From IMG/VR virus record IMGVR_UViG_2537561978_000007: 37,256 nt of DNA; one strand, given 5' to 3'. This DNA is from a virus. Lineage: Duplodnaviria; Heunggongvirae; Uroviricota; Caudoviricetes. This document shows positions 24,271 through 37,256 of the stretch, in pieces. Each line of letters begins with the position of its first letter. Position 1 is the stretch's first letter. The translations under genes were made by a program, and so were the position numbers. The notes beneath the pieces are model-generated. The model saw only the letters and a list, made by a program, of their open reading frames with translations, did no database searches and was not told the DNA's origin.

Positions 24271-26037
24271 ATGAACACCACACTGACACCCGCAGATCTC
24301 GATCCCCGTCGGCAGGCCATGCTGCTGTACTTTCAGGGATACCGCGTAGCCCGCATTGCTGAAATGCTGGGCGAGAAAGTTGCAACTGTTCACAGCTGGA
24401 AAAAACGCGACAAGTGGGGTGACTATGGGCCGCTGGATCAGATGCAGCTCACCACCGCCGCACGCTACTGCCAGCTCATTATGAAGGAGCACAAAGAAGG
24501 GAAAGATTTCAAAGAGATTGACCTGCTGGCGCGCCAGTCGGAGCGCCATGCGCGGATCGGCAAGTTTAACAATGGCGGCAACGAAGCCGACTTAAACCCT
24601 AACGTCGCCAACCGCAACAAAGGCCCGCGCCGTCAGCCGGAAAAGAACGTTTTCACCGATGAACAGATTGAGAAGCTGGAAGAAATCTTCCATTCCTCCA
24701 TGTTCAACTACCAGCGCCACTGGTGGGAAGCCGGAAAAAACAACCGCATCCGCAACCTGCTGAAGTCACGCCAGATCGGCGCAACCTTTTACTTTGCCCG
24801 TGAAGCCCTGATTGACGCTCTGCTTACCGGGCGTAACCAGATTTTCCTTTCCGCCAGTAAGGCACAGGCCCACGTCTTTAAGCAGTACATCATCGACTTC
24901 GCCAAAGAAGTGGAGGTGGAGCTGAAAGGCGATCCGATGGTGCTTCCTAACGGGGCCACGCTTTACTTCCTAGGCACCAATGCCCGCACGGCCCAGAGTT
25001 ATCACGGCAACCTGTATCTGGATGAATATTTCTGGATACCAAAATTTCAGGAGCTGCGCAAAGTGGCTTCCGGTATGGCTATTCACAAGAAATGGCGACA
25101 GACCTATTTTTCCACGCCATCCAGCCTGACCCACAGTGCTTATCCGTTCTGGTCCGGCGCGTTGTTCAACCGTGGGCGCAACAAAGCCGATAAGGTGGAC
25201 ATCGACCTGTCCCACAGCAATCTGGCCCCCGGCCTGCTGTGCGCAGACGGGCAATACCGCCAGATAGTCACCGTGGAAGATGCGGTACGCGGCGGCTGTA
25301 ACCTGTTCGACCTCGACCAGTTGCGCATGGAGTACAGCCCGGACGAATACCAGAACCTGCTGATGTGCGAGTTCGTTGACGATCTCGCATCTGTGTTCCC
25401 GCTCAGCGAATTGCAGGCGTGCATGGTGGACAGCTGGGAAGTCTGGACCGACTTTCATGCACTGGCGCTGCGCCCGTTTGGCTGGCGCGAAGTGTGGATC
25501 GGTTATGACCCGGCAAAAGGTACGCAGAACGGCGACAGTGCCGGATGCGTGGTGGTGGCTCCGCCAGCCGTGCCGGGCGGTAAGTTCCGTATTCTTGAGC
25601 GTCACCAGTGGCGCGGGATGGACTTCCGCGCCCAGGCGGACGCCATCAAAAAACTGACCGAACAGTACAACGTGACATATATCGGCATCGACTCGACAGG
25701 TGTCGGTCACGGGGTTTATGAGAACGTGAAAGCGTTCTTTCCTGCCGTCCGGGAGTTTGTCTACAACCCCAACGTTAAAAACGCCCTGGTACTCAAGGCC
25801 TACGACATTATCAGCCACCGCCGTCTGGAGTTTGACGCCGGACACACCGACATTGCGCAGTCATTCATGGCAATCCGTCGCGCAACCACCGCCAGCGGCA
25901 ACCGCCCGACCTATGAAGCCAGCCGCAGCGAAGAAGCCAGCCACGCCGATCTGGCCTGGGCAACAATGCACGCACTGTTTAACGAACCACTGCAGGGCGA
26001 GTCCGCCAATACCAGTAATATTGTGGAGATTTTTTGA
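24271..26037 (+). CDS. P: Terminase large (ATPase) subunit P
   Basis: 588 aa; P2 gpP-like. Confidence 0.9.
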   Translation: MNTTLTPADLDPRRQAMLLYFQGYRVARIAEMLGEKVATVHSWKKRDKWGDYGPLDQMQLTTAARYCQLIMKEHKEGKDFKEIDLLARQSERHARIGKFNNGGNEADLNPNVANRNKGPRRQPEKNVFTDEQIEKLEEIFHSSMFNYQRHWWEAGKNNRIRNLLKSRQIGATFYFAREALIDALLTGRNQIFLSASKAQAHVFKQYIIDFAKEVEVELKGDPMVLPNGATLYFLGTNARTAQSYHGNLYLDEYFWIPKFQELRKVASGMAIHKKWRQTYFSTPSSLTHSAYPFWSGALFNRGRNKADKVDIDLSHSNLAPGLLCADGQYRQIVTVEDAVRGGCNLFDLDQLRMEYSPDEYQNLLMCEFVDDLASVFPLSELQACMVDSWEVWTDFHALALRPFGWREVWIGYDPAKGTQNGDSAGCVVVAPPAVPGGKFRILERHQWRGMDFRAQADAIKKLTEQYNVTYIGIDSTGVGHGVYENVKAFFPAVREFVYNPNVKNALVLKAYDIISHRRLEFDAGHTDIAQSFMAIRRATTASGNRPTYEASRSEEASHADLAWATMHALFNEPLQGESANTSNIVEIF

Positions 26038-27062
26038 TGGGAAAGAGTAAGAAGAACCGCGCTGCGTCGACGAACCAGCTCCAGCATAAAAGCCAGACTT
26101 CAGCCGAAGCATTCAGCTTCGGTGATCCCGTTCCTGTTCTGGACCGCCGTGAACTGCTGGACTATGTGGAATGCGTACAGACAGATCGCTGGTATGAGCC
26201 GCCCGTCAGCTTTGACGGACTGGCGCGCACCTTCCGCGCCGCCGTGCATCACAGTTCTCCGATTGCAGTAAAGTGCAACATTCTGACCAGTACCTATATC
26301 CCTCATCCGCTGCTCAGCCAGCAGGCTTTTTCGCGTTTTGTGCAGGACTATCTGGTATTTGGTAACGCCTACCTGGAGAAACGCACGAACCGATTCGGTG
26401 AAGTTATCGCCCTTGATCCTGCGCTGGCAAAATACACCCGACGCGGGTTAGACCTGGATACCTACTGGTTTGTGCAATACGGTATGACAACCCAGCCGTA
26501 TCAGTTCACGAAAGGCAGCATTTTTCATCTGATGGAACCGGACATCAACCAGGAGATCTACGGCCTGCCCGGCTATCTTTCTGCCATTCCGTCAGCCCTG
26601 CTCAATAAGTCCGCCACGCTGTTCCGCCGCAAGTATTACATCAACGGCAGCCATGCAGGCTTCATCATGTATATGACCGATGCCGCGCAGAATCAGGAGG
26701 ATGTGAACAATCTCCGCAACGCGATGAAAAGTGCCAAAGGTCCTGGTAACTTCCGTAACCTGTTTATGTACTCGCCTAACGGTAAAAAGGACGGGCTTCA
26801 GATTATCCCGTTGTCAGAAGTGGCGGCGAAGGATGAGTTCCTGAATATCAAGAACGTGAGCCGGGACGACATGATGGCGGCGCATCGTGTGCCGCCACAA
26901 ATGATGGGGATAATGCCTAATAATGTTGGAGGGTTTGGGGATGTGGAGAAGGCGAGTAAGGTTTTTGTTAGAAATGAACTAATTCCACTCCAAAAAAGAA
27001 TAATGGAAGTTAATGAATGGTTAGGTGAGAAAACTATCCGATTTCAGCATTATGATTTATAA
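26034..27062 (+). CDS. Q: Portal protein Q
   Basis: 342 aa; P2 gpQ-like; 4-bp overlap with P. Confidence 0.9.
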   Translation: MMGKSKKNRAASTNQLQHKSQTSAEAFSFGDPVPVLDRRELLDYVECVQTDRWYEPPVSFDGLARTFRAAVHHSSPIAVKCNILTSTYIPHPLLSQQAFSRFVQDYLVFGNAYLEKRTNRFGEVIALDPALAKYTRRGLDLDTYWFVQYGMTTQPYQFTKGSIFHLMEPDINQEIYGLPGYLSAIPSALLNKSATLFRRKYYINGSHAGFIMYMTDAAQNQEDVNNLRNAMKSAKGPGNFRNLFMYSPNGKKDGLQIIPLSEVAAKDEFLNIKNVSRDDMMAAHRVPPQMMGIMPNNVGGFGDVEKASKVFVRNELIPLQKRIMEVNEWLGEKTIRFQHYDL

Positions 27063-27087: not shown

Positions 27088-27534
27088 CTAAGATTCTGTC
27101 GTTGTCTCTAATGAACACCAAGCATTAATTCCCATTTTTGAGACAGCTATCAACATAATTACTACAGCTGGAGCAATAAATGTTGCTGTTGCCCCCAAAG
27201 AACCCGCAATTGCCGAAGAGATCACCCCTACAAAGTATGTTTTAACATCACCAGTCAGTGCTCCTAAACATTCCCTCTCCTCTGCATATTTATCACCTCC
27301 ACATACAAAAGCCTTAAACTCTAATTTAAACTGCTCAACAAACGCTTTTCTTCCCGGCATTTTTGAATTATCACCGCCAAATTGAGCAACTGAACTTGGG
27401 CCAGATGCAGTTAGCCATAGCTCAAGAGCCTTTTCTTCATCGCCATTTTCGAGAAAATTCCTGACAGATGAAGATTGATACGTTTTTAAAGTGGACAACC
27501 AAGACTCAGCATCTTCATTTGGTATAGCAATCAT
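27088..27534 (-). CDS. Small tail-anchored membrane protein, unknown function (cargo gene 2 of the protease cassette)
   Basis: 148 aa; soluble acidic N-terminus, C-terminal about 40-residue hydrophobic Gly/Ala-rich hairpin (YFVGVISSAIAGSLGATATFIAPAVVIMLIAV); ATGA overlap with upstream protease gene; AT-rich. Confidence 0.6.
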   Translation of the reverse strand: MIAIPNEDAESWLSTLKTYQSSSVRNFLENGDEEKALELWLTASGPSSVAQFGGDNSKMPGRKAFVEQFKLEFKAFVCGGDKYAEERECLGALTGDVKTYFVGVISSAIAGSLGATATFIAPAVVIMLIAVSKMGINAWCSLETTTES

Positions 27535-28178
27535 AACATATCCTTAACATATTCTGCAGAAACCGCATAAGTTGTCTGATGTAGTTCAGCTGGATTAATA
27601 CCTCCAACCAAAACAGAACCTCCAGAATTATTTGCATAAGCGCCAACCAAGACGCCTATTACCGAGTCATTTTTTAAATTAAATACAATCGATCCCGATT
27701 GACCAGGTCTGGTTTGGATATTTATAACGGCATGTTTAGATTGAATATTACTGCTTGAAAGTAAAACTTTTGCACCTATTTTTGCCGTTTGAAATGTCAA
27801 TACTTTTCTATTTTCATTACAATGTGGGAAACCTAAAATACCCACATCTTCACCGACATTAACATCGTCAAGAGTAGCAATTTTTAGGCAAGGTTCATAA
27901 ACAGGTGCATTTTTAATTTTTAACACACATAAGTCTTTTATTGGATCTTCATCAATAACATCAACTCCAATACATTGAAATTTATCAACACTTGTATCCT
28001 GATAACTATTAAAGTTATTTATATTAGATGGAGAAATAACTAAGTTAGAAGAAAACCCATTAATAACATGGCGGGAAGTAATTATTTTATCCTTAGAAAT
28101 AAAAAAACCTGTTCCTAAAAAACTAACCAAACCTGCATTAAGCACGCCAACAACTACGACATATTCAGGACCAATCAT
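27531..28178 (-). CDS. Trypsin-like (S1/Trypsin_2-type) serine peptidase, cargo gene 1
   Basis: 215 aa from the Met at 28178, with GGAG 6 nt upstream; catalytic-triad contexts GTGFFISKDKIITSRHV (His), DPIKDLCVLKI (Asp), TRPGQSGSIVFN (Ser); AT-rich. Confidence 0.7.
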   Translation of the reverse strand: MIGPEYVVVVGVLNAGLVSFLGTGFFISKDKIITSRHVINGFSSNLVISPSNINNFNSYQDTSVDKFQCIGVDVIDEDPIKDLCVLKIKNAPVYEPCLKIATLDDVNVGEDVGILGFPHCNENRKVLTFQTAKIGAKVLLSSSNIQSKHAVINIQTRPGQSGSIVFNLKNDSVIGVLVGAYANNSGGSVLVGGINPAELHQTTYAVSAEYVKDML

Positions 28179-28261
28179 AACAACTCCATTCTGTAATATG
28201 TTATGGACTCTGACTAAGACAATACTTAACCAAACCGTGAATATCAAGGTGCAAGCGCGCG

Positions 28262-28280
28262 CTCGTATCCCCGCCACGCC
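28262..28280 (-). other. Candidate cos cohesive-end sequence
   Basis: Minus-strand GGCGTGGCGGGGATACGAG; the first 13 nt match the P2/186 cohesive-end start GGCG(A/T)GGCGGGGA as I recall it; GC-rich island between Q-side cargo and the early region. Confidence 0.45.
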
Positions 28281-28622
28281 TGCCCGCTTTATGTAGTGGT
28301 TTTCATGCAGGAGCATGATCTACGCAAAAGCCCGCCAGTTCTGGCGGGCCTTAGCAAAAACGATCCTCAAACGATCATGCAATCTCATGCAGCATAGACA
28401 TGCACAGACGAGTAAAGCGAATCGGACTTTACGCAAGGTGAACTCCTCAGCGGGCATAATCAGTATGTCGGAAGATCTCTAAAAATAAATAATTCGGTTA
28501 ACAGGTATGCTTACAAAAGCATATATTTGATTAAAAATCATGTAAGGGGGAGGATCTCAAACTGAATCGCCACGGGTTTTACAAATTTCGATAGTCTCTC
28601 TAACGTTTCGGCTGAGGTCAAA

Positions 28623-29048
28623 ATGAAAAGCTTTTACGTATTAATTTTAATTCTGGTTGCAAGCTTTGTTAGCGTCCCTGTTCAGGCGGTAACAGCTAAA
28701 AACTATGAGAAAGGAACTAAAGCTCAACAGAAATCAATATCTTACCTTTCATGTGCATTCTATGGCAGTAGCACACAATTAGATCCTAGCTACACGGAGC
28801 AAGTACCTACAGCCGATATCAAGATATTACAGAAAGCAGCTTACCACGCTTACAACGATGCGCTCTCATACTTTGGCTATGAGGAACCAGATCACGAACA
28901 ACGCATAATTGATTATGCTGAATTTGTGGCGTCGCAAGAAGCTGTGTTATGGGATAAGCCGGGAATGAATGGAAAGCAGGTAACACTAATTGCTCGTTCT
29001 CTCTACAATGAGAGTAACTGTAACTTGTTACTGGACTCAATTAAGTAG
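28623..29048 (+). CDS. Secreted protein of unknown function (moron)
   Basis: 141 aa; signal peptide MKSFYVLILILVASFVSVPVQA; GAGG RBS; candidate promoter TTTACA-N17-TAACGT upstream; AT-rich. Confidence 0.6.
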   Translation: MKSFYVLILILVASFVSVPVQAVTAKNYEKGTKAQQKSISYLSCAFYGSSTQLDPSYTEQVPTADIKILQKAAYHAYNDALSYFGYEEPDHEQRIIDYAEFVASQEAVLWDKPGMNGKQVTLIARSLYNESNCNLLLDSIK

Positions 29049-29207
29049 GAAAAAGATGGTATTTTGCCCGTAGTTTCAACCTTAATCTCCGAACCTATCG
29101 CAGAACGGGCGTTCACTCATCAAATAAACGCCACACCTAACGCCTCACTGTACTCGTTGTTCAACCTTGCTGACGCCAGAACCAAGTTCAGACGCCAGCA
29201 ACTTTTC

Positions 29208-29441
29208 TTAATGCAGCCAGCTGTCGTCTTCCCACACCTTCTGCATAATCTTCATCACTTGTTTTCTTTCTTCGTCCAGTTGCAGTCCGGTCAGTTCCAC
29301 ACCGTTAGAGCTACCTTTGCGGATGCGAATTACCGTTTTGGGATACAGGGGGCGCAGATTGCGGTAAAGCTCGGATTCAAGGGCGTCCAGGGTAGACTGG
29401 CTAATCTTCTGCTCTTTATCGATCATTATTTCAATGCGCAT
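29208..29441 (-). CDS. DinI-like protein (C-terminal-like part of a 186 Tum-type antirepressor module)
   Basis: 78 aa from MRIEIMIDKEQ...; aligns with E. coli DinI (MRIEVTIAK...ALAGELSRR...QETWE); GAGGTGA RBS. Confidence 0.7.
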   Translation of the reverse strand: MRIEIMIDKEQKISQSTLDALESELYRNLRPLYPKTVIRIRKGSSNGVELTGLQLDEERKQVMKIMQKVWEDDSWLH

Positions 29442-29451
29442 AAAGGTCACC

Positions 29452-29640
29452 TCAGCTGATGACATCCATTGAGCGGTTGTATTCGTGGGTTCTGATTTTT
29501 GCCATGAGTTCATCTGTCAGTTCAGAAACCCACTGCAAAGCCAGCCCCTTCTCTTCATCACTACACTCACTAGCCGCTACAAGCTTAAGAAAAAAATCAA
29601 TGCGCTGGAGCTTCAAAGACTCCAAAAAATAGTCCTGCAT
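29452..29640 (-). CDS. Small hypothetical protein upstream of the DinI-like gene
   Basis: 63 aa from MQDYFLESL...; start placed downstream of the LexA box; stop 10 nt before the DinI-like start. Confidence 0.4.
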   Translation of the reverse strand: MQDYFLESLKLQRIDFFLKLVAASECSDEEKGLALQWVSELTDELMAKIRTHEYNRSMDVIS

Positions 29641-29683
29641 CTTTCCTCCTATGACACCACAAGCAATACTGTATACATAACCA

Positions 29684-29699
29684 CTGTTTATATTTACAG
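29684..29699. promoter_or_regulatory. LexA (SOS) box CTGT-N8-ACAG
   Basis: CTGTttatatttACAG with an adjacent half-site TACTGTATAC; in AT-rich promoter region upstream of the minus-strand small-ORF/DinI-like operon. Confidence 0.55.
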
Positions 29700-29793
29700 T
29701 ATATAATAATCTTACTGATGTAAAACGTTTTTTTACGTTCATTAGCCTGATATGCCTGGTATTATTAAGAGCACGAATTGTTAACCCGCGTAA

Positions 29794-32208
29794 TTAATAC
29801 AGGTTTCGCCACTTATCATCTTCCTGCAAACGCTGGTTCCGATAGAAGATACGCAGGCCTGCTCCTGACGGAATACTGCCGCCGCGAAGGAGTAAATCGA
29901 CCTCTTTCTCGCTGCCATTAAATCCTCTGGACTTCAGTTCATAGACGAGCTGCTGTCGCTGATGGTCTATAATTCGCTGTTTGTAGTCTTTACGCCGTTT
30001 CGGTTTCACCAGGCGTAACCTTGCAGCCAGTTCCCGGCGCTCTTTTTTGCTCATACTGTGCAGGTAATCGTGCAACTCCTTGTCATCCATGCGGGTAATG
30101 TCCGTCCTGGTATCCCCATCAGCTGATTTGTCTTTCCCTTGTTGGTTCAAATTTTCAGCAAGGGGACAGTTATTGCCACGAGTCCAAGGGGCGCAAGCGC
30201 CCTGGTCGGCTGCCGCCTCCTGAACGTCAACGGCTTTACGAACCATTTTCCACTTCACTGCATGAGTGCAGATCTTGCCTTCTGCAATGGGTGACCAGAT
30301 GCCATAAATACGAATACCGTGATCGCCATAGGCGGTCGGCTCTTCATTGATTTCATAAGCGGTTCTGATCAAGTGATATTTGCGAGGAACCAGCACGCCG
30401 CCCTGCCTCATAATGTAGGTGGCAAAACAGCCAGCATCAGCAGCAGCCAGGATGGCATCAAGGCGCGGGTTATCCAGTACCGGCGCACCTGCTTTTTTGT
30501 CACCCTGCTGCCTTGCCGCCTGACCAGCCAACAACCGCAGTTCACGGTAAGCCTGACGCCCTGGAATACCAAAGAAGCGGAATTGCTGAACACGATGCAG
30601 AGACGCCCAGGCATTAACGTATTCAGCGTTATCACGCAGGGATTTACCCGTTTCCTTGCTGATCTCGCCAGCCAGACCACGCCCGTCAATGTTCTTACTG
30701 ATGTATTTCGCGATGTAGCTTGTCGGCGTTCCTTTGCGCGGGTTTATCAGCTCAGATTTAAAGCGTGGACCAGTGTTATTACCCAGTTCCTCGCGGTCTT
30801 CACGGATGGCAAACTTACGCAACAATGCAGTAATGGCGCGGCGGTCTTTTTTGCGCATAAAACACAACAGGTGCCAGTGAACTGTACCGTCATGATGCGG
30901 CTCAGCCACCCGCACGCCATACCAGCGCAACCCGGCTTTGTGCATCGCCTTACGAAATGCAGCAAACATGCCGACCAGATAATCGCTGCTTTGTCTTACC
31001 GTCGCATTTGTCCAGGTTGGGTTTGGTCTGCCGTTATTGAGCGTGGAATGGAAACGTGACGGACAGGTAATGGTGTAGAAAACGGCGCAGTCACCGCGCA
31101 TTTCCGCGATAAGCTCCAGACCTTTAACACAGGCCATCATCTCATTGCGGCGGTGCGCCGGGTTGCTGCTGCTGGCGTTTACCACGTCTTCCATATCCAG
31201 CGTGTCGCCCTCTTCGTTCACCAGTTCATGAGAACGGAAAAACTCCAGTGACTTGCGGCGCTGCTCACGTTTATGCATCACGGCTTCATAGCTGACATAG
31301 GGAGATGCTTTTTTGCTGACCAGGCAGACAGCACGCAACTGCTCTTCCCGCCATTCGCAACGCATTTTCCATAATTTCCGGTACCACCAGTCGGCGCACA
31401 ACATACGCGCCAGCGAACCCGGAATGAGTTCATAGGGCACGGGTTTACGGCGGTTTCTTTTCCGACGGAGTTGCTCAAACGCAGGCGGGATGACATCCAG
31501 ACGCAGGGTTTCCGCTGCCACCTTTTCCCATGTCTTGCGGATTTCTTCTGGCTTAACGTCATCGGTGGCATACAAATCACCACAAGCTGCATCAAGGCAC
31601 ATGCTCATATGCGCAGCGACAAGGGTAGACAGGCGTTTCACCTGATCCTGACTCATTTCAGGCAGAATCAGCAGGCCGTCCAGCCCTACATGGCTTGCCA
31701 TAAAACGAAAAGATGCAGATAGCTGGCTGTCGCGTACATGCTCCAGTCGTTCCAGACATGGCTTAATCGTCTCACGTAAATAGCGGGAATAAGCCTTTGG
31801 CCTGCCCAGGCTGCTGAAGTATTCAATACGTTGCATCAGCGGCTTGCTGATATGGGAAGGCTGGGCGTTGACGTCCGCCAGAATGACCATATCCGGATTA
31901 AAACGCTGCTGCTCATGCGCCAGCTTTGCCCGGCTAATGAGCTTATCCTGCTCCATTTCGTGCTGGACAGGATCACGTGATTCATTAAAAAAATAACGCT
32001 CCCAGACCTGATCACTCAGTGCCTCGCGGCGCAACTGTTCCTGCTCGTTATCGGCAGCGTACAGAGTGATCAGGTTTGAAAGCGCAGAAACCGGCGCAAC
32101 TTCCGCCGGGTCCAGATAAGGGTTAATGGCCTTTTTCGGGCTGTTCCATGAGAACGCTGCGGCAGCCTCGTTAAAGCCGCAGCAGTTGTTCATATCGGCA
32201 TGGCTCAT
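29794..32208 (-). CDS. A: Replication initiation protein A (rolling-circle nickase)
   Basis: 804 aa; P2/186 gpA-like; position upstream of the tum/cos region. Confidence 0.85.
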
Positions 32209-33062
32209 GCACGTACTCCGTACACGGCAGAACTATCCACGCCACGCGAATAATCAAATCCCACCCAGCAGCGCGGCCCGGAAACAGCAATGATTTCTGT
32301 TGCTGATTTACCCTCGCCAGCTGCCACACCGATGATGCGTTTTACCTTGATATAGTGGTGAGTAAAATTGCGATACAGCGAACGGATCAGGGATGTGTCA
32401 CTGTTAGAAACAATGACCGGATGTCCTTCTGATGACCGATGTTCAAGAACAGATGCCAGGTGATACTGGTCATCTTCAGTGAAGCCGTCAGTGTGATAGC
32501 CGGAAAACGTACCGTCATACGGTGGATCGCAATACACCACATCCCCCGCCTTCAACATCGCCAGCGTTTCATCAAAGCTGGCGCAGATAAACGTTGCTCG
32601 CTGGGCTTTTTCTGCAAATGCGCGAATTTCTTTTTCAGGGAAATACGGATTTTTATAATTGCCGTAGGGAATGTTGAAATGCCCGCTCTTGTTATAGCGA
32701 CATAAACCACGGTAACCGTGACGATTGAGATACAGGAAATATACCGCTTTCATGAAATCAGTAATTTCAGTTGAGTAATTAAACTCCTTCCTTATGTTGT
32801 AATAAGCCACCTCCCTGTTTGCGATCTCAAATAAAACTCTGGCGCGAGATATAAACGATTCACAATCAGCAGCAACCTTTTTATAGAGGTTGATTAAATC
32901 AGGATTAATATCCGCAACAAGATAGCTGGGGTACTCCGTCTCCATCATCACTGCACAGGAACCCGCGAAAGGTTCAACCAGTCGCGGGCCAGCAGGAAGA
33001 TGCTTTTTCAGTTCGGACATAATGGCGGTTTTATTTCCCGCCCATTTCAGGATGGTGCTCAT
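32205..33062 (-). CDS. dam: DNA adenine methyltransferase (Dam/D12-class)
   Basis: From [11 protein letters not shown]...; SAM-binding [10 protein letters not shown] and catalytic DPPY motif; overlaps A start by 4 bp. Confidence 0.85.
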
Positions 33063-33286
33063 ACAGCACCTCCGTTGTAATGTTTGCCTTTCAGCTCTGC
33101 GATTTCCTGACAGGTAATGCAAAGCTGCACACCTGGAATGGCACGGCGGCGTGCTGGCGGAATTGGCGCTTCACACTCAATGCAAAGCACGCGGGACACG
33201 CCCGGCGTTTTGGCACGGGCAGCACGGATATGACGCTGGCGTTCTTCTTCAACGCGCTGCTGTACGAGATCCATTGCATCAGCCAT
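33059..33286 (-). CDS. TraR/DksA-family C4 zinc-finger protein
   Basis: 75 aa; CIECEAPIPPARRRAIPGVQLCITCQE; common P2-family early-region gene. Confidence 0.75.
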   Translation of the reverse strand: MADAMDLVQQRVEEERQRHIRAARAKTPGVSRVLCIECEAPIPPARRRAIPGVQLCITCQEIAELKGKHYNGGAV

Positions 33287-33950: not shown

Positions 33951-34175
33951 CTATCGTTCTTTGTTCTTACGGTAACGCTCAAGAGGAGATACATTTTTTC
34001 GTATCGTCTCTTTAACCTGCTCTCCCCGTAAAAACGTCCCATCCTTTAACGTGAAAAAGTAACTGCCATCTCCCGACAATGACGGATAGCAACAGAGCAA
34101 ATCATCTTCAGGTACTGAATAACTCTCCCCTCTGTAACGAAACTGATAAACCACTTCACTTTCTGCCGCATACAT
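33951..34175 (-). CDS. Hypothetical early protein
   Basis: 74 aa ORF; overlaps an alternative-frame ORF (34046..34342), so the gene model is uncertain. Confidence 0.35.
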   Translation of the reverse strand: MYAAESEVVYQFRYRGESYSVPEDDLLCCYPSLSGDGSYFFTLKDGTFLRGEQVKETIRKNVSPLERYRKNKER

Positions 34176-34349
34176 TTGGACTTTCTCCGTTTCCTCGTGG
34201 TCAATTCAGACAGCAATTCATCTTGTGAATGACATGGATGCCAGCGTTTTCCATCCTCACCCGTGATCCAGCCGTAACCGTAGTGCATTGCCGGGCTTTG
34301 TTTTACCAGCAGCGATGCAAATGATGGTTCTTTCGTCAGCATAAGCACC

Positions 34350-34865
34350 TCACAGCAAACCGAATGAAGCACCGAGGCCAGTCACGGTATCAACTGCACT
34401 CGCCATCGCAGGATTAGCCTGTAAACGGGCCTGCAATGAAACAGCAGCCAGCGCCATCAGTCGTGTTACAGAGTTAATGCTGCTGATAGCATCACGACGA
34501 CCGGCACAGGTTTTTACATCGCCAGACACCGCACCTGCAGCAACACGCCCGATCTCTGCGGTTGCACTCATGACGTAATGTGGCAGTTTCTCTTTTGCCA
34601 CCTCATTAATCGGTACACATGGCAGACAATGAATCTGTGCCAGAAAACCATCTACCAGCGTTGAATCTTCAGTCAGATCGGTAAGCAGCCAGATTTCTGG
34701 TGCGGTTAATAAATGAGGCTGAGCTGGGTTCAGCTTGTTCCGCAGAATCTGCACATTCATGCCTGCACGTTCTGCCAGTTGCACCAGATTGTGGCGCAGT
34801 GCAAATGCACGACAGGCTTCATCAAAATGTGGATGTTTGGAAACTTGGTAATCAAACATGGTCAA
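34350..34865 (-). CDS. cII: CII-like transcriptional activator (phage 186 type)
   Basis: 171 aa; near-collinear with 186 CII as I recall it (MFDFQVSKHPHYDEACRAF...[12 protein letters not shown]). Confidence 0.8.
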
Positions 34866-35113: not shown

Positions 35114-35238
35114 GATGCAACATTCCTCGTTTAATGATGATTAATCAGGACGAATACGGATCGTTTGTATTTTGTGAACACCATAAACATACGATCGCAC
35201 GGCGAAATCGTCAAGATAAAAGTTCACTTGGAGTGACC

Positions 35239-35808
35239 ATGAATTTGGAGAAAGGCGGACGAGGCGCCATAGAGCGCATGGTAGAAGCTTATGGATTCAA
35301 GACTCGACAGGCGTTGTGCGATCATTTAGGAATCTCTAAAAGTACACTCGCCACACGCTACATGCGTGACTCATTCCCAGCAGAATGGGTAATCCAGTGC
35401 GCCCTTGAAACGGGCACCTCGCTTAATTGGCTCACAACCGGACATGGTTCAAAGCAAACTTCAGGTAATACAAATACTATGGAAGTTGCTAAATATGTAT
35501 TATCTGATGGTGCCTTGCGTGAAGACGGTTTTTATATTTTTGATAAGGGATTTCTACCCTCTACGTTTAAAAAACCTTTTGTCATCACAGATAACAATTC
35601 TGAATTTATTTGTGATAAAGAATTTGATGACATACGTGATGGTAAATGGGTAATAAGTATTGATGGCGAAGTAACGATCCGTGACATTACTCGTTTACCC
35701 GGTGGAAGAATCTTCGTCGAGGGTGGAAACAGAGCCTTCGAATGTAAGATAGAAGACATTGAAATAATTGGTAAAATTATAAGTTTAACAGTTAAATATG
35801 TTAGATAA
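35239..35808 (+). CDS. cI: CI immunity repressor (186 type)
   Basis: 189 aa from MNLEKGGRGAIERM...; N-terminal HTH (TRQALCDHLGISKSTLATRY); GGAG RBS; divergent from apl. Confidence 0.75.
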   Translation: MNLEKGGRGAIERMVEAYGFKTRQALCDHLGISKSTLATRYMRDSFPAEWVIQCALETGTSLNWLTTGHGSKQTSGNTNTMEVAKYVLSDGALREDGFYIFDKGFLPSTFKKPFVITDNNSEFICDKEFDDIRDGKWVISIDGEVTIRDITRLPGGRIFVEGGNRAFECKIEDIEIIGKIISLTVKYVR

Positions 35809-36015: not shown

Positions 36016-36203
36016 CTTTTGCTTTTATATCTGCGTCTAAAATAAAAATGAGCCGCAGGTTAACCGCAAAAGTTACATGCTCACATAGCAAAAAGAATAG
36101 CCAACTTCATTATGGCTTCAGTGAGATGTATGGTCGTAGGATTTCATACATTGACACTGGTTATACATACAGTAAAAATGCTCTCTACTGGAGGGCATTT
36201 TTT

Positions 36204-37256
36204 ATGGCAGTACGAAAACTCACCACTGGGAAATGGCTTTGCGAATGTTACCCCGCCGGACGAAGTGGGCGTCGTGTGCGTAAACAATTCGCCACCAAAG
36301 GCGAAGCACTGGCTTTTGAGCGCCACACGATGGAAGAAACCGAAGCAAAGCCCTGGCTGGGTGAATCAGTGGATCGTCGAACACTGAAAGACGTGGTTGA
36401 GCTATGGTTCAAACTACATGGTAAATCTCTGACAGCTGGGCAGCATGTCTATGACAAATTGCTGTTGATGGTTGACGCTCTGGGCAATCCTCTTGCAACC
36501 GATCTCACCTCTAAAATGTTTGCCCATTATCGAGATAAACGCCTGACAGGCGAGATCTACTTCAGCGAGAAATGGAAGAAAGGAGCAAGCCCGGTCACCA
36601 TTAACCTGGAGCAAAGCTATCTAAGTAGTGTTTTTAGCGAACTATCCCGTCTGGGCGAATGGTCGTATCCGAACCCACTGGAGAACATGCGAAAATTCAC
36701 CATCGCAGAAAAAGAGATGGCATGGCTTACCCATGAGCAGATTGTTGAATTGCTGGCTGATTGCAAACGTCAGGACCCAATTCTGGCACTGGTAGTTAAG
36801 ATATGCTTAAGCACAGGCGCACGCTGGCGTGAAGCCGTAAATCTTACCCGCTCACAGGTGACCAAATACCGAATTACCTTTGTCAGAACGAAGGGGAAGA
36901 AAAACAGAAGCATCCCTATCAGTAAAGAGCTTTACGAAGAGATCATGGCGCTTGATGGGTTCAATTTCTTCACAGACTGCTATTTTCAATTTTTATCCGT
37001 GATGGAAAAAACGTCTATCGTGCTCCCTCGCGGTCAACTCACACACGTTCTGCGCCATACGTTTGCGGCGCACTTCATGATGTCGGGTGGAAACATTCTG
37101 GCCTTACAAAAAATTCTCGGACACCACGATATAAAAATGACTATGCGTTACGCACATCTGGCACCGGATCATCTGGAAACGGCGCTCCGTTTCAATCCTC
37201 TGGCAACGCTGCCAAGTGGCGACAAAGTGGCGGCAGCGGTTGGCATTACCCCGTAA
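36204..37256 (+). CDS. int: Tyrosine integrase
   Basis: From MAVRKLTTGKW...; C-terminal catalytic region with ...LRHTFAAHFMMSGGNILALQKILGHHDIKMTMRYAHL (R, H-x-x-R, Y) similar to P2 Int; stop coincides with the window end. Confidence 0.85.
   Translation: MAVRKLTTGKWLCECYPAGRSGRRVRKQFATKGEALAFERHTMEETEAKPWLGESVDRRTLKDVVELWFKLHGKSLTAGQHVYDKLLLMVDALGNPLATDLTSKMFAHYRDKRLTGEIYFSEKWKKGASPVTINLEQSYLSSVFSELSRLGEWSYPNPLENMRKFTIAEKEMAWLTHEQIVELLADCKRQDPILALVVKICLSTGARWREAVNLTRSQVTKYRITFVRTKGKKNRSIPISKELYEEIMALDGFNFFTDCYFQFLSVMEKTSIVLPRGQLTHVLRHTFAAHFMMSGGNILALQKILGHHDIKMTMRYAHLAPDHLETALRFNPLATLPSGDKVAAAVGITP

Follow-up and report, generated by a model that had tools for sequence, protein, structure and literature searches.

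In phage 186, the Tum protein inhibits the CI repressor once the p95 promoter is derepressed from LexA (PMC7708051), and Tum binds CI and stops it from binding its operators (Shearwin et al. 1998, as cited in PMC3121763 and PMC7708051). A split form of tum was described by Lemire et al. 2011: in Fels-2 and PSP3, tum is divided in two, with antirepressor activity attributed to the upstream gene of PSP3 as a personal communication (PMC3121763). In the PSP3 record, tumA carries the label 'similar to 5' end 186 tum; UV induction of prophage', and tumB is described as resembling dinI. The Fels-2 operon, STM2726-2728, showed 5- to 15-fold induction by the mutagen MX in a microarray analysis and was grouped with the LexA regulon (PMC2225428), and the title of Bunny et al. 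2002 blames Fels-2 for the lethality of lexA-null mutations. A Salmonella SOS-regulon paper (PMC8072944) names neither STM272x nor tum and has Fels-2 in its reference list only, and a whole-word literature search for TumA and TumB returned unrelated papers only. LexA-controlled colicin operators, which are relevant to the promoter described below, are reported to be occupied by two LexA dimers and to drive expression that is both very tight and heterogeneous (PMC2994835).

The window (the whole 37,256-nt stretch of DNA analyzed here) carries a locus that we regard with considerable confidence, from its sequence and gene order, as the operon for SOS induction of a prophage in the P2/186 family (Peduoviridae), organised in the split tumA-tumB form of Fels-2 and PSP3. 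Its features are as follows.

29794 to 32208, minus strand: replication gene A (gpA-like, 804 aa), from the ORF list, the synteny anchor
29719 to 29724, minus strand: putative -35 element TTTACA of a p95-like promoter, read from the sequence, 17 nt upstream of TACTGT
29696 to 29701, minus strand: putative -10 element TACTGT, within SOS box 1; the hexamer and its relation to the LexA box are as in annotated 186 p95
29682 to 29701, no strand assigned: SOS (LexA) box 1, promoter-distal, TACTGTAAATATAAACAGTG on the coding strand, with the core CTGT-N8-ACAG at 29684-29699
29667 to 29686, no strand assigned: SOS box 2, promoter-proximal, CAGTGGTTATGTATACAGTA on the coding strand, overlapping box 1, with the core CTGT-N8-CCAC at 29669-29684
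29645 to 29650, minus strand: Shine-Dalgarno sequence AGGAGG of ORF1, read from the sequence and kept in relatives
29452 to 29640, minus strand: ORF1, 62 aa, TumA-like, putative CI antirepressor by Fels-2 and profile homology
29448 to 29453, minus strand: Shine-Dalgarno sequence GAGGTG of ORF2, read from the sequence, overlapping the TGA stop of ORF1
29208 to 29441, minus strand: ORF2, 77 aa, DinI-family and TumB-like by its PF06183 match and its similarity to the Tum C-terminus
29163 to 29205, minus strand: conserved hairpin just past the ORF2 stop, predicted by RNAalifold from 7 phages (18 pairs, 7 compensatory)

Gene A lies directly upstream of ORF1 on the same strand, and this order matches 186, Fels-2 and PSP3; in every matching record the gene is labelled replication endonuclease or gpA. 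Position and sequence together support homology of the locus to the p95-tum SOS module of 186. The preliminary description had proposed a tum-like locus at the position of 186 tum, and the gene A synteny, the p95-like promoter geometry and the similarity of both ORFs to Tum, detailed below, bear this out. The locus does not encode a single fused Tum polypeptide, as the ORFs are set apart by a TGA stop, a gap of 10 nt before the ORF2 ATG and a +1 shift of frame; it belongs to the split (tumA/tumB) class and not to fused 186 Tum sensu stricto. The same separation of 10 nt had been noted earlier, together with lengths of 63 and 78 aa; both ORFs are present at the coordinates given then, and their lengths are corrected here to 62 and 77 aa.

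The identity of ORF2 is the clearer of the two, and its earlier assignment as a DinI homologue holds. It matches the Pfam DinI family PF06183 over profile positions 1-63 of 63 (E 6.6e-23; 81.3 bits against a cut-off of 24.2) and its whole length aligns with residues 1-77 of E. coli DinI (1GHH). Against the chromosomal DinI equivalog NF007893 it scores 42.7 bits, below the 111-bit cut-off. Judged by these profile scores, ORF2 is a phage paralogue of DinI and not an orthologue of host dinI. Its amino acid sequence is 100% identical to that of Fels-2 STM2726.1, a protein whose annotation notes a similarity to PSP3 TumB, and 41% identical to residues 71-145 of 186 Tum; the C-terminus of 186 Tum indeed resembles DinI, as the preliminary description had stated (PMC3121763). 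The overlap of GAGGTG with the ORF1 stop suggests translational coupling of the two cistrons. A 101-aa mechanical ORF in the same frame, starting at 29513, was considered and is not the gene. The hairpin past the ORF2 stop has no U-tract and was not flagged by the terminator scan; possible roles are those of a terminator, an RNA-stabilising element or a cos-adjacent element.

ORF1 is preceded by AGGAGG 4 nt 5' of its ATG and is 98.4% identical to Fels-2 STM2728. Its relationship to Tum emerges only at the profile level. The preliminary description had suggested aligning both products to 186 Tum. For ORF2 the pairwise alignment succeeds, whereas BLASTP yields none for ORF1 and 186 Tum, nor for ORF1 and PSP3 TumA or PSP3 TumA and 186 Tum, so that such a check fails for ORF1 unless profiles are used. 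ORF1 matches the family phrog_698 at E 3.6e-38, and residues 1-70 of 186 Tum match the same family at E 5.9e-6. An hhalign comparison of the ORF1 family with 186 Tum aligned residues 3-44 to residues 3-44 (probability 94.9%, E 4.5e-8). By this profile evidence, ORF1 is homologous to 186 Tum over residues 3-44, about 42 residues. The link to PSP3 TumA is weak (hhalign probability 8.6%; E 0.0022 for the PSP3-TumA family, phrog_1993). ORF1 had no match in Pfam, NCBIfam or PADLOC, is named 'hypothetical protein' in RefSeq, and its family profile retrieved nothing in a sequence search of the PDB. Its AlphaFold model is a two-helix hairpin (pLDDT 88), and a Foldseek search of the PDB with this model returned generic helical hairpins only, which is uninformative. 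Diverged homologues begin at the ORF1 start position, most with MxD, and not at the upstream ATG; a 96-aa mechanical ORF from 29742 was rejected as the gene since its start lies upstream of the promoter.

The promoter is sigma-70-like, with the arrangement TTTACA-17-TACTGT compared with TTCACA-18-TACTGT annotated for 186 p95, and a -35 element of TTTACA or TTCACA is kept in Fels-2, SopEphi, KpST437phi4.1 and ESSI2_ev040. It was not flagged by a generic promoter scan because that scan requires a TATAAT-like hexamer to have A as its second and T as its sixth base, with at least 9 of 12 matches. The LexA core CTGTTTATATTTACAG at 29684-29699, reported earlier as a CTGT-N8-ACAG box, is present. The bare pattern is not significant alone, with one match in the window for 0.47 expected and at least one match in 42 of 100 shuffles. 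The full 20-mer CACTGTTTATATTTACAGTA (29682-29701) has 17 of its 20 bases in common with the LexA consensus TACTGTATATATATACAGTA, a level reached in none of 100 shuffles, and is the sole site in the window within three mismatches of the consensus. The position of the LexA box is kept in 13 of 13 related phages examined, and box 1 in all Fels-2-type relatives.

What had been taken for an adjacent half-site is real and is in fact a second, overlapping SOS box, which agrees with the consensus at 15 of 20 positions. Counted from the ORF1 ATG, box 1 is at -61 and box 2 at -46, 15 bp apart, with cores that share one base. Six of the seven Fels-2-type promoters examined have a recognisable box 2, the exception being the decayed copy in 500465-1; the promoters examined from other TumA subfamilies all lack one. 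When compared directly with plasmid sequences, the window operator TACTGTAAATATAAACAGTGGTTATGTATACAGTATT aligned almost base for base with the operators of ColE1 cea, colicin N cna and cloacin: across some 42 nt, boxes 1 and 2 show 86-88% identity to the promoters of colicin N and cloacin (E ~2e-5 to 6e-5), and the region upstream of ColE1 cea contains the same double-box segment, nearly identical. By sequence, the operator thus appears to be of the colicin type, with two boxes about 15 bp apart, 16-bp cores sharing one base, and similarity over the whole segment.

The presumed target of ORF1 is encoded elsewhere in the window.

35239 to 35808, plus strand: 186-type CI repressor, the putative target, with a likely start at M36 of a 224-codon ORF from 35134

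This protein contains both PF07022 (E 8e-34) and PF16452 (E 8e-29) and is 32% identical to 186 CI. It scores 16.6 bits against Peptidase_S24, below the cut-off of 23.3, and has no convincing autocleavage domain; we infer that it is not RecA-cleavable. Identity in the CI N-terminal domain is 69-78% in phages that share the window's TumA, as against 42-48% in PSP3 and 186, and identity in the C-terminal domain is 29-42% across all phages compared. For instance, the CI of the Fels-2-like phage RE2010 is about 40% identical to the window CI overall, 69% in the N-terminal and 29% in the C-terminal domain. TumA type thus appears to track the N-terminal and not the C-terminal domain of CI, in a comparison of seven phages that is confounded by shared ancestry, and this tracking suggests that the N-terminal domain may hold the antirepressor binding site.

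The preliminary description left two readings of the divided module, a variant antirepressor arrangement or a decayed tum gene. Decay would mean that a nonsense mutation or frameshift disrupted a Tum that was ancestrally fused, leaving one or both halves as non-functional remnants. Such a history would fit the single 146-aa polypeptide of 186 that spans both halves, PSP3 and 613R3, in which both ORFs share one frame and are parted by a single TAG and 3 nt, and the related phage 500465-1, which carries frameshifted copies of both ORFs. Yet both ORFs are under strong purifying selection (dN/dS ~0.03-0.12 at dS ~0.2-1.9; ~0.09 for ORF1 in comparisons with the window and 0.03-0.10 for ORF2), each has its own Shine-Dalgarno sequence, and among relatives the frame of ORF2 relative to ORF1 is +1, +2 or 0 with both ORFs intact throughout. 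An exhaustive HMMER search found the ORF1 family to be mostly short (~35-100 aa), with a DinI-length extension past the matched region in none. The fused form was found only in close relatives of 186, where every full-length match sampled had an identity of 94% or more and the band of at least 90% contained 28 of 126 records; in 186 itself, the DinI part retains an internal AAGGAGG-GTG start of its own. The split module is widespread, being present in 1125 of 5426 complete E. coli genomes (about one in five). Decay is therefore very improbable, the variant arrangement stands, and it is the fusion, not the split, that looks like the derived state. A split tum locus is ordinary and, from Fels-2 and PSP3, already described. 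Still less probable is a recoding event close to the ORF1 end, whether by a +1 frameshift or by bypass of the stop, that would join the ORF2 frame and yield a fused Tum-like protein. The ORF2 frame is open for 24 codons 5' of its ATG, back to 29513, and 186 yields both fused and DinI-only products; an open stretch of this length, however, arises by chance in about 1/3 of cases, (61/64)^24, and ORF2 has its own ATG as well as its ribosome-binding site. By eye, no obvious slippery motif was noticed at the ORF1/ORF2 junction, and the variable frame relation in close relatives argues against any single conserved recoding mechanism.

The split module could also be a DinI cassette that does no more than modulate the SOS response, its small leader protein being unrelated and the prophage induced otherwise, by CI autocleavage or another antirepressor. 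ORF1 has neither a curated family nor pairwise similarity to Tum, its best Foldseek match to generic hairpins has an E of 0.49, and in other prophages a LexA-regulated dinI occurs with a different gene as antirepressor (PMC3121763). Against this stand the profile homology of ORF1 to the Tum N-terminus, in register from residue 3, and its tum position and promoter. In ESSI-2-type phages, moreover, TumA-like genes occur alone behind the same LexA box, without any DinI gene, which is consistent with ORF1 as a self-sufficient effector. The window CI has no S24 peptidase domain above threshold, and no other antirepressor candidate was seen beside a LexA box in the window, where a single site falls within three mismatches of the consensus. 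We consider this explanation improbable, and an antirepressor role for ORF1 the better account.

Under the split-tum reading, the operon would work as follows. In the undamaged cell, LexA dimers would occupy the two overlapping SOS boxes, covering the -10 element and the start region and keeping the operon silent. DNA damage would activate RecA, LexA would cleave itself, and the promoter would fire. The helical-hairpin protein encoded by ORF1 would bind the 186-type CI, probably at its N-terminal DNA-binding domain, and block its binding to DNA; the early lytic promoter would then be derepressed and the prophage induced. The co-transcribed TumB-like ORF2 would bind RecA filaments and modulate the SOS signal. 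LexA binding at the operator and a RecA-modulating role of ORF2 are presumed by analogy, as is SOS induction of the operon, for which the microarray response of the near-identical Fels-2 operon provides support. Antirepressor activity of ORF1 is likewise predicted from fused 186 Tum and from PSP3 TumA, the latter known from a personal communication and belonging to a different TumA subfamily.

Very probably, ORF1 acts as the switch tying induction of P2-like prophages to DNA damage, including that caused by SOS-triggering antibiotics. Some 1100 complete E. coli genomes and many Klebsiella and Salmonella prophages list it as a hypothetical protein, and a TumA-like label would improve predictions of prophage inducibility. 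More tentatively, we hypothesize that Fels-2-type tumA promoters carry a colicin-type double LexA operator, acquired by common descent or convergence, and that the TumA-like protein recognises the conserved N-terminal DNA-binding domain of CI; the two together are possible and go beyond what is stated in the literature we consulted. If true, Fels-2-type prophages would be induced in a colicin-like manner, with very tight repression and a late SOS response confined to a small share of the cells, unlike those with the single-box promoters of 186 and PSP3, and a difference in induction threshold between Fels-2-type and 186-type phages would be testable. One TumA allele could then inactivate CIs whose C-terminal oligomerisation domains are only ~30-40% identical, allowing cross-induction among co-resident P2-like prophages. 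The double operator and the CI-domain tracking leave the known picture of SOS-controlled antirepression unchanged.

Among known systems, Fels-2 of Salmonella LT2 is one of the closest: STM2728 and STM2726.1 (the latter corresponding to STM2727 in LT2 numbering) show the same 10-nt junction, +1 frame and post-gpA position, behind a promoter and double SOS box nearly identical to those of the window, with two bases that differ in the box 2 spacer. The two diverge downstream, where Fels-2 has a same-strand 243-aa ORF, STM2726, and where in the window the hairpin is followed by a convergent 141-aa ORF, whose N-terminus resembles a signal peptide, and then by the candidate defence pair PDC-M35. PSP3, like the window, has two cistrons after gene A behind a LexA box, and its tumB is a close homologue of ORF2. 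Its TumA, however, belongs to another subfamily (phrog_1993), its cistrons are in frame with TAG and 3 nt between them instead of a 10-nt gap and a +1 frame, and its SOS box is single, agreeing with the consensus at 19 of 20 positions.

Phage 186 shares with the window the LexA box over the TACTGT -10 element and the 186-type CI target. The N-terminal ~44 residues of its 146-aa Tum are homologous to ORF1 and the C-terminal 76 to ORF2, but 186 makes a fused polypeptide with nested shorter products, including a GTG-initiated DinI-only form, in place of two cistrons in different frames; it has one SOS box and not two, and its downstream orf97 is absent from the window. The Gifsy operons dinI-gfoA and dinI-gftA are, like the window operon, repressed by LexA and combine a DinI homologue with a small antirepressor acting on a non-cleavable repressor (PMC3121763), with the differences that dinI comes first, that the repressor is of another family and that the phages are lambdoid, not P2-like. 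The colicin operators share the double-box operator and serve toxins, whereas that of the window drives a predicted antirepressor operon; the flanking promoter and leader sequences are unrelated, and the core of box 1 is a perfect CTGT-N8-ACAG in the window and CTGT-N8-CCAG in ColE1.

The window covers most of a prophage of the P2/186 family (Peduoviridae), with its early genes on the minus strand and the following features around the tum-like operon.

36048-37256, plus strand: integrase ORF
about 35239-35808, plus strand: 186-type CI repressor
34350-34865, minus strand: CII-like regulator
34046-34372, minus strand: Fil-like protein
32205-33122, minus strand: Dam methylase, a D12-class N6-adenine DNA methyltransferase (PF02086, E 2.8e-75)
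29794-32208, minus strand: replication gene A
28623-29048, plus strand: 141-aa ORF (phrog_7437, function unknown, E 4e-99)
27531-28316, minus strand: 261-aa trypsin-like peptidase, PDC-M35A match (PADLOC, E 8e-94)
27088-27534, minus strand: 148-aa ORF, PDC-M35B match (PADLOC, E 4e-58)
26034-27062: portal gene (Q), with which the structural genes start
24271-26037: terminase gene, likewise at the start of the structural genes

The tum-like operon lies directly downstream of gene A, which is the place of the LexA-repressed p95-tum operon in phage 186. The methyltransferase gene is directly upstream of gene A and overlaps its start; 186 has the PAPS-reductase-like orf84 there instead. The co-oriented PDC-M35A and PDC-M35B ORFs, a PADLOC candidate defence system, lie in the variable stretch that separates the tum operon from gene Q. 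The 141-aa ORF, convergent with ORF2 (the second gene of the operon), has a signal-peptide-like N-terminus (MKSFYVLILILVASFVSVPVQA) and no Pfam match; the same place holds orf97 in 186 and STM2726 in Fels-2.

The operon comprises two small ORFs. The TumA-like ORF1 begins at an ATG 4 nt after AGGAGG and encodes 62 aa (29640-29452, minus strand). Its TGA stop codon is overlapped by GAGGTG, followed by the ATG of the DinI-family ORF2 (77 aa, 29441-29208, minus strand), which lies 10 nt away in the +1 frame relative to ORF1. The two ORFs and their 10-nt gap are as given in the preliminary description, with lengths of 62 and 77 aa rather than 63 and 78. The Shine-Dalgarno sequence over the ORF1 stop codon suggests that ORF2 is probably translationally coupled to ORF1. 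Mechanical ORFs of 96 and 101 aa were rejected as over-extensions of ORF1 and ORF2, respectively, the former because its start lies ahead of the promoter and diverged homologues consistently use the ORF1 start position. In public protein sets, ORF1 is often called with an upstream extension (29452-29742) that runs over the promoter and LexA boxes and lengthens the product to 87-101 aa; UniRef includes the name 'Levan regulatory protein' for it, which is unsupported by any family search run.

The minus strand reads TTTACA-17 nt-TACTGT, two overlapping LexA boxes, and AGGAGG-4 nt-ATG of ORF1.

29701-29682: box 1, the 20-mer TACTGTAAATATAAACAGTG, containing a CTGT-N8-ACAG core (29684-29699)
29686-29667: box 2, CAGTGGTTATGTATACAGTA

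A bare CTGT-N8-ACAG is not significant alone (0.47 matches expected; at least one in 42 of 100 shuffles). The 20-mer LexA consensus with up to three mismatches has box 1 as its single site in the window and matched in 0 of 100 shuffles, confirming the LexA box proposed earlier; the adjacent element, described then as a half-site, is real and is a second box. Box 1 is kept in all seven Fels-2-type (phrog_698) promoters examined, and in six of them a recognisable box 2 lies 15 bp downstream (box 1 16-17/20 and box 2 14-16/20 to consensus) despite diverged flanks, the sole exception being the decayed copy of phage 500465-1. A single, stronger box (17-19/20) is present in PSP3, 613R3, 186, ESSI-2, ESSI2_ev040 and a Yersinia phage.

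A 61-nt operator query found matches in 220 plasmid records; small mobilizable plasmids (~5-10 kb) make up many of those listed, and the two matches examined precede the genes for colicin N and cloacin. The ColE1 cea promoter contains the same operator sequence (CTGTATATAAAACCAGTGGTTAT...), and alignment with colicin-type promoters revealed a nearly invariant operator of ~40 nt between unrelated flanks. Colicin operators are reported to bind two LexA dimers, with undetectable basal expression and with expression in only a small subpopulation (PMC2994835). By analogy, we infer that the tumA promoter of the window would be repressed by two LexA dimers and behave like these operators.

ORF2 matches Pfam DinI (PF06183, E 6.6e-23), aligns end-to-end with E. 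coli DinI (1GHH) and is 41% identical to residues 71-145 of 186 Tum, in agreement with the earlier statement that the Tum C-terminus resembles DinI; Lemire et al. 2011 (PMC3121763) likewise describe the latter half of Tum as DinI-like. Since it scores under the NCBIfam equivalog cut-off for chromosomal DinI, ORF2 is a phage paralogue. For ORF1, searches of Pfam, NCBIfam and PADLOC returned no family, and pairwise BLAST found no similarity to 186 Tum or PSP3 TumA; profiles connect it to both. ORF1 matches phrog_698 (E 3.6e-38), phrog_8554 (E 2.4e-8) and phrog_1993 (E 0.0022); PSP3 TumA defines phrog_1993 (E 2.7e-32), and residues 1-70 of 186 Tum match the same three (phrog_1993, E 1.5e-23; phrog_8554, E 3.4e-12; phrog_698, E 5.9e-6). 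Queried with an alignment of 28 diverse ORF1 relatives, hhalign placed residues 3-44 onto residues 3-44 of 186 Tum (probability 94.9%, E 4.5e-8). The predicted fold of ORF1 is a two-helix hairpin (pLDDT 88), with no informative structural neighbours.

Fels-2 STM2728 is 98.4% identical to ORF1, and STM2726.1, annotated as similar to PSP3 TumB, is identical to ORF2 in amino acids. The PSP3 record describes tumA as 'similar to 5' end 186 tum; UV induction of prophage' and tumB as 'similar to dinI and 3' end of 186 tum'; Lemire et al. 2011 (PMC3121763) state that tum is divided into two genes in Fels-2 and PSP3, and a personal communication cited there assigns the antirepressor activity of PSP3 to the upstream gene. 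The mutagen MX induces the Fels-2 operon STM2726-STM2727-STM2728, with STM2727 up 5.5- to 14.8-fold and grouped with the LexA regulon (PMC2225428).

The preliminary description had left two readings, a variant arrangement of tum or a decayed tum gene. The location and the homology of both ORFs to Tum support a tum-like locus, and of the two readings the variant arrangement is the supported one. Decay was rejected because both ORFs are under purifying selection, remain intact across junction types and are widespread in split form. Against SopEphi, KpST437phi4.1, MLG42 and SEN8, dN/dS is ~0.09 for ORF1 and 0.05-0.09 for ORF2 at dS ~0.8-1.9 (0.02-0.12 over all pairs computed). Junction length and frame vary: the window and Fels-2 have 10 nt (+1 frame), SopEphi, KpST437 and SEN8 have 11 nt (+2 frame), and the in-frame junctions measure 12 nt in MLG42 and 3 nt in PSP3 and 613R3, with both ORFs intact in every case.

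Escherichia phage 500465-1 (1099-1731 of its locus, L014) has frameshift-like disruptions in both the TumA-like ORF ('...ERGWLCSGVSEL...') and the DinI-like ORF, whose C-terminus is altered and extended; its box 2 is also degraded. These disruptions are either genuine decay or sequencing errors; if genuine, they illustrate how a decayed module would look.

It is the fusion in 186 that looks derived. In the phage collection, the fused form was seen only in close relatives of 186, more diverged lineages being split; among the full-length matches sampled, identity was never below 94%, and the band of at least 90% identity holds 28 of the 126 records. An exhaustive HMMER search of the ORF1 family recovered mostly short proteins (~35-100 aa) and no DinI-fused members. 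186 keeps an internal AAGGAGG-GTG start for a DinI-only product. Near-identical TumA proteins accompany a Fels-2-type DinI in PSP3 (L004, 4135-4554) and a 186-type DinI in 613R3 (L017, 1156-1572), and thus the two cistrons reassort independently. In ESSI-2-type phages, a single LexA box precedes a TumA-like gene that has no DinI gene downstream of it.

1201-1368 of L007: TumA-like gene of Cronobacter phage ESSI-2
1153-1413 of L008: TumA-like gene of ESSI2_ev040

Directly beyond this gene, both phages have a convergent transcriptional regulator and then the portal gene; the ESSI-2 ORF carries no annotation in its record.

Directly after the ORF2 stop codon is a further conserved element.

29163-29205, minus strand: hairpin of 18 pairs, 7 with compensatory changes (seven phages)

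The hairpin has no U-tract; its candidate roles are terminator, RNA stabiliser and cos-adjacent element. A nearly invariant GGTTGAACAACGAG comes after it and, within ~5-10 nt in several relatives (SopEphi, KpST437, PSP3), a GGCGAGG motif that resembles the P2 cohesive end.

The putative target of the operon is CI. Window CI, whose start is probably M36 of a 224-codon ORF, contains the 186 CI helix-turn-helix domain (PF07022) and C-terminal domain (PF16452), with only a sub-threshold S24 peptidase score, and is 32% identical to 186 CI. Among phage records, CI identity to window CI never exceeds 56%, and many phages within this limit still carry ORF1 98-100% identical. In a small, phylogenetically confounded sample, phages with the same TumA have CI N-terminal domains 69-78% and C-terminal domains 29-42% identical to those of window CI, versus 42-48% and 29-31% in PSP3 and 186, whose TumA types differ; this pattern fits an antirepressor acting on the CI DNA-binding domain. 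The 186 annotation of Tum, 'inhibits CI DNA binding', agrees with such a target. The CI repressors of the window (35134-35808, plus strand) and of six related loci (L018-L023) are mosaics, with an N-terminal HTH conserved among same-TumA phages and a highly divergent C-terminus. Stop-to-stop frames over cI contain a tandem HTH duplication in PSP3 and Klebsiella phage Kp4860-7.

In 186, the mechanism is established: SOS relieves the LexA repression of p95, after which Tum inhibits CI (PMC7708051). In the window, LexA on the two overlapping boxes would keep the operon off until SOS-induced LexA cleavage permitted transcription; ORF1 would then sequester CI, derepressing the lytic promoter, and ORF2 may modulate RecA filament activity. 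For LexA binding, induction by SOS, antirepressor activity and what ORF2 does, these predictions draw on 186, PSP3, Fels-2 and E. coli DinI.

What was shown directly for the window is the anatomy of the operon, the homology of its products, the selection on them and the type of CI. Based on the Fels-2 identity, the PSP3 annotation and Lemire et al. 2011, its arrangement is the already described split form of tum. It is also very common: many E. coli strains carry chromosomal segments 100% identical to the 651-bp region, and the split module is present in 1125 of 5426 complete E. coli genomes. The remaining points of note are an ORF1 still unannotated in databases, a double, colicin-like operator, and a TumA type that tracks the CI N-terminal domain.
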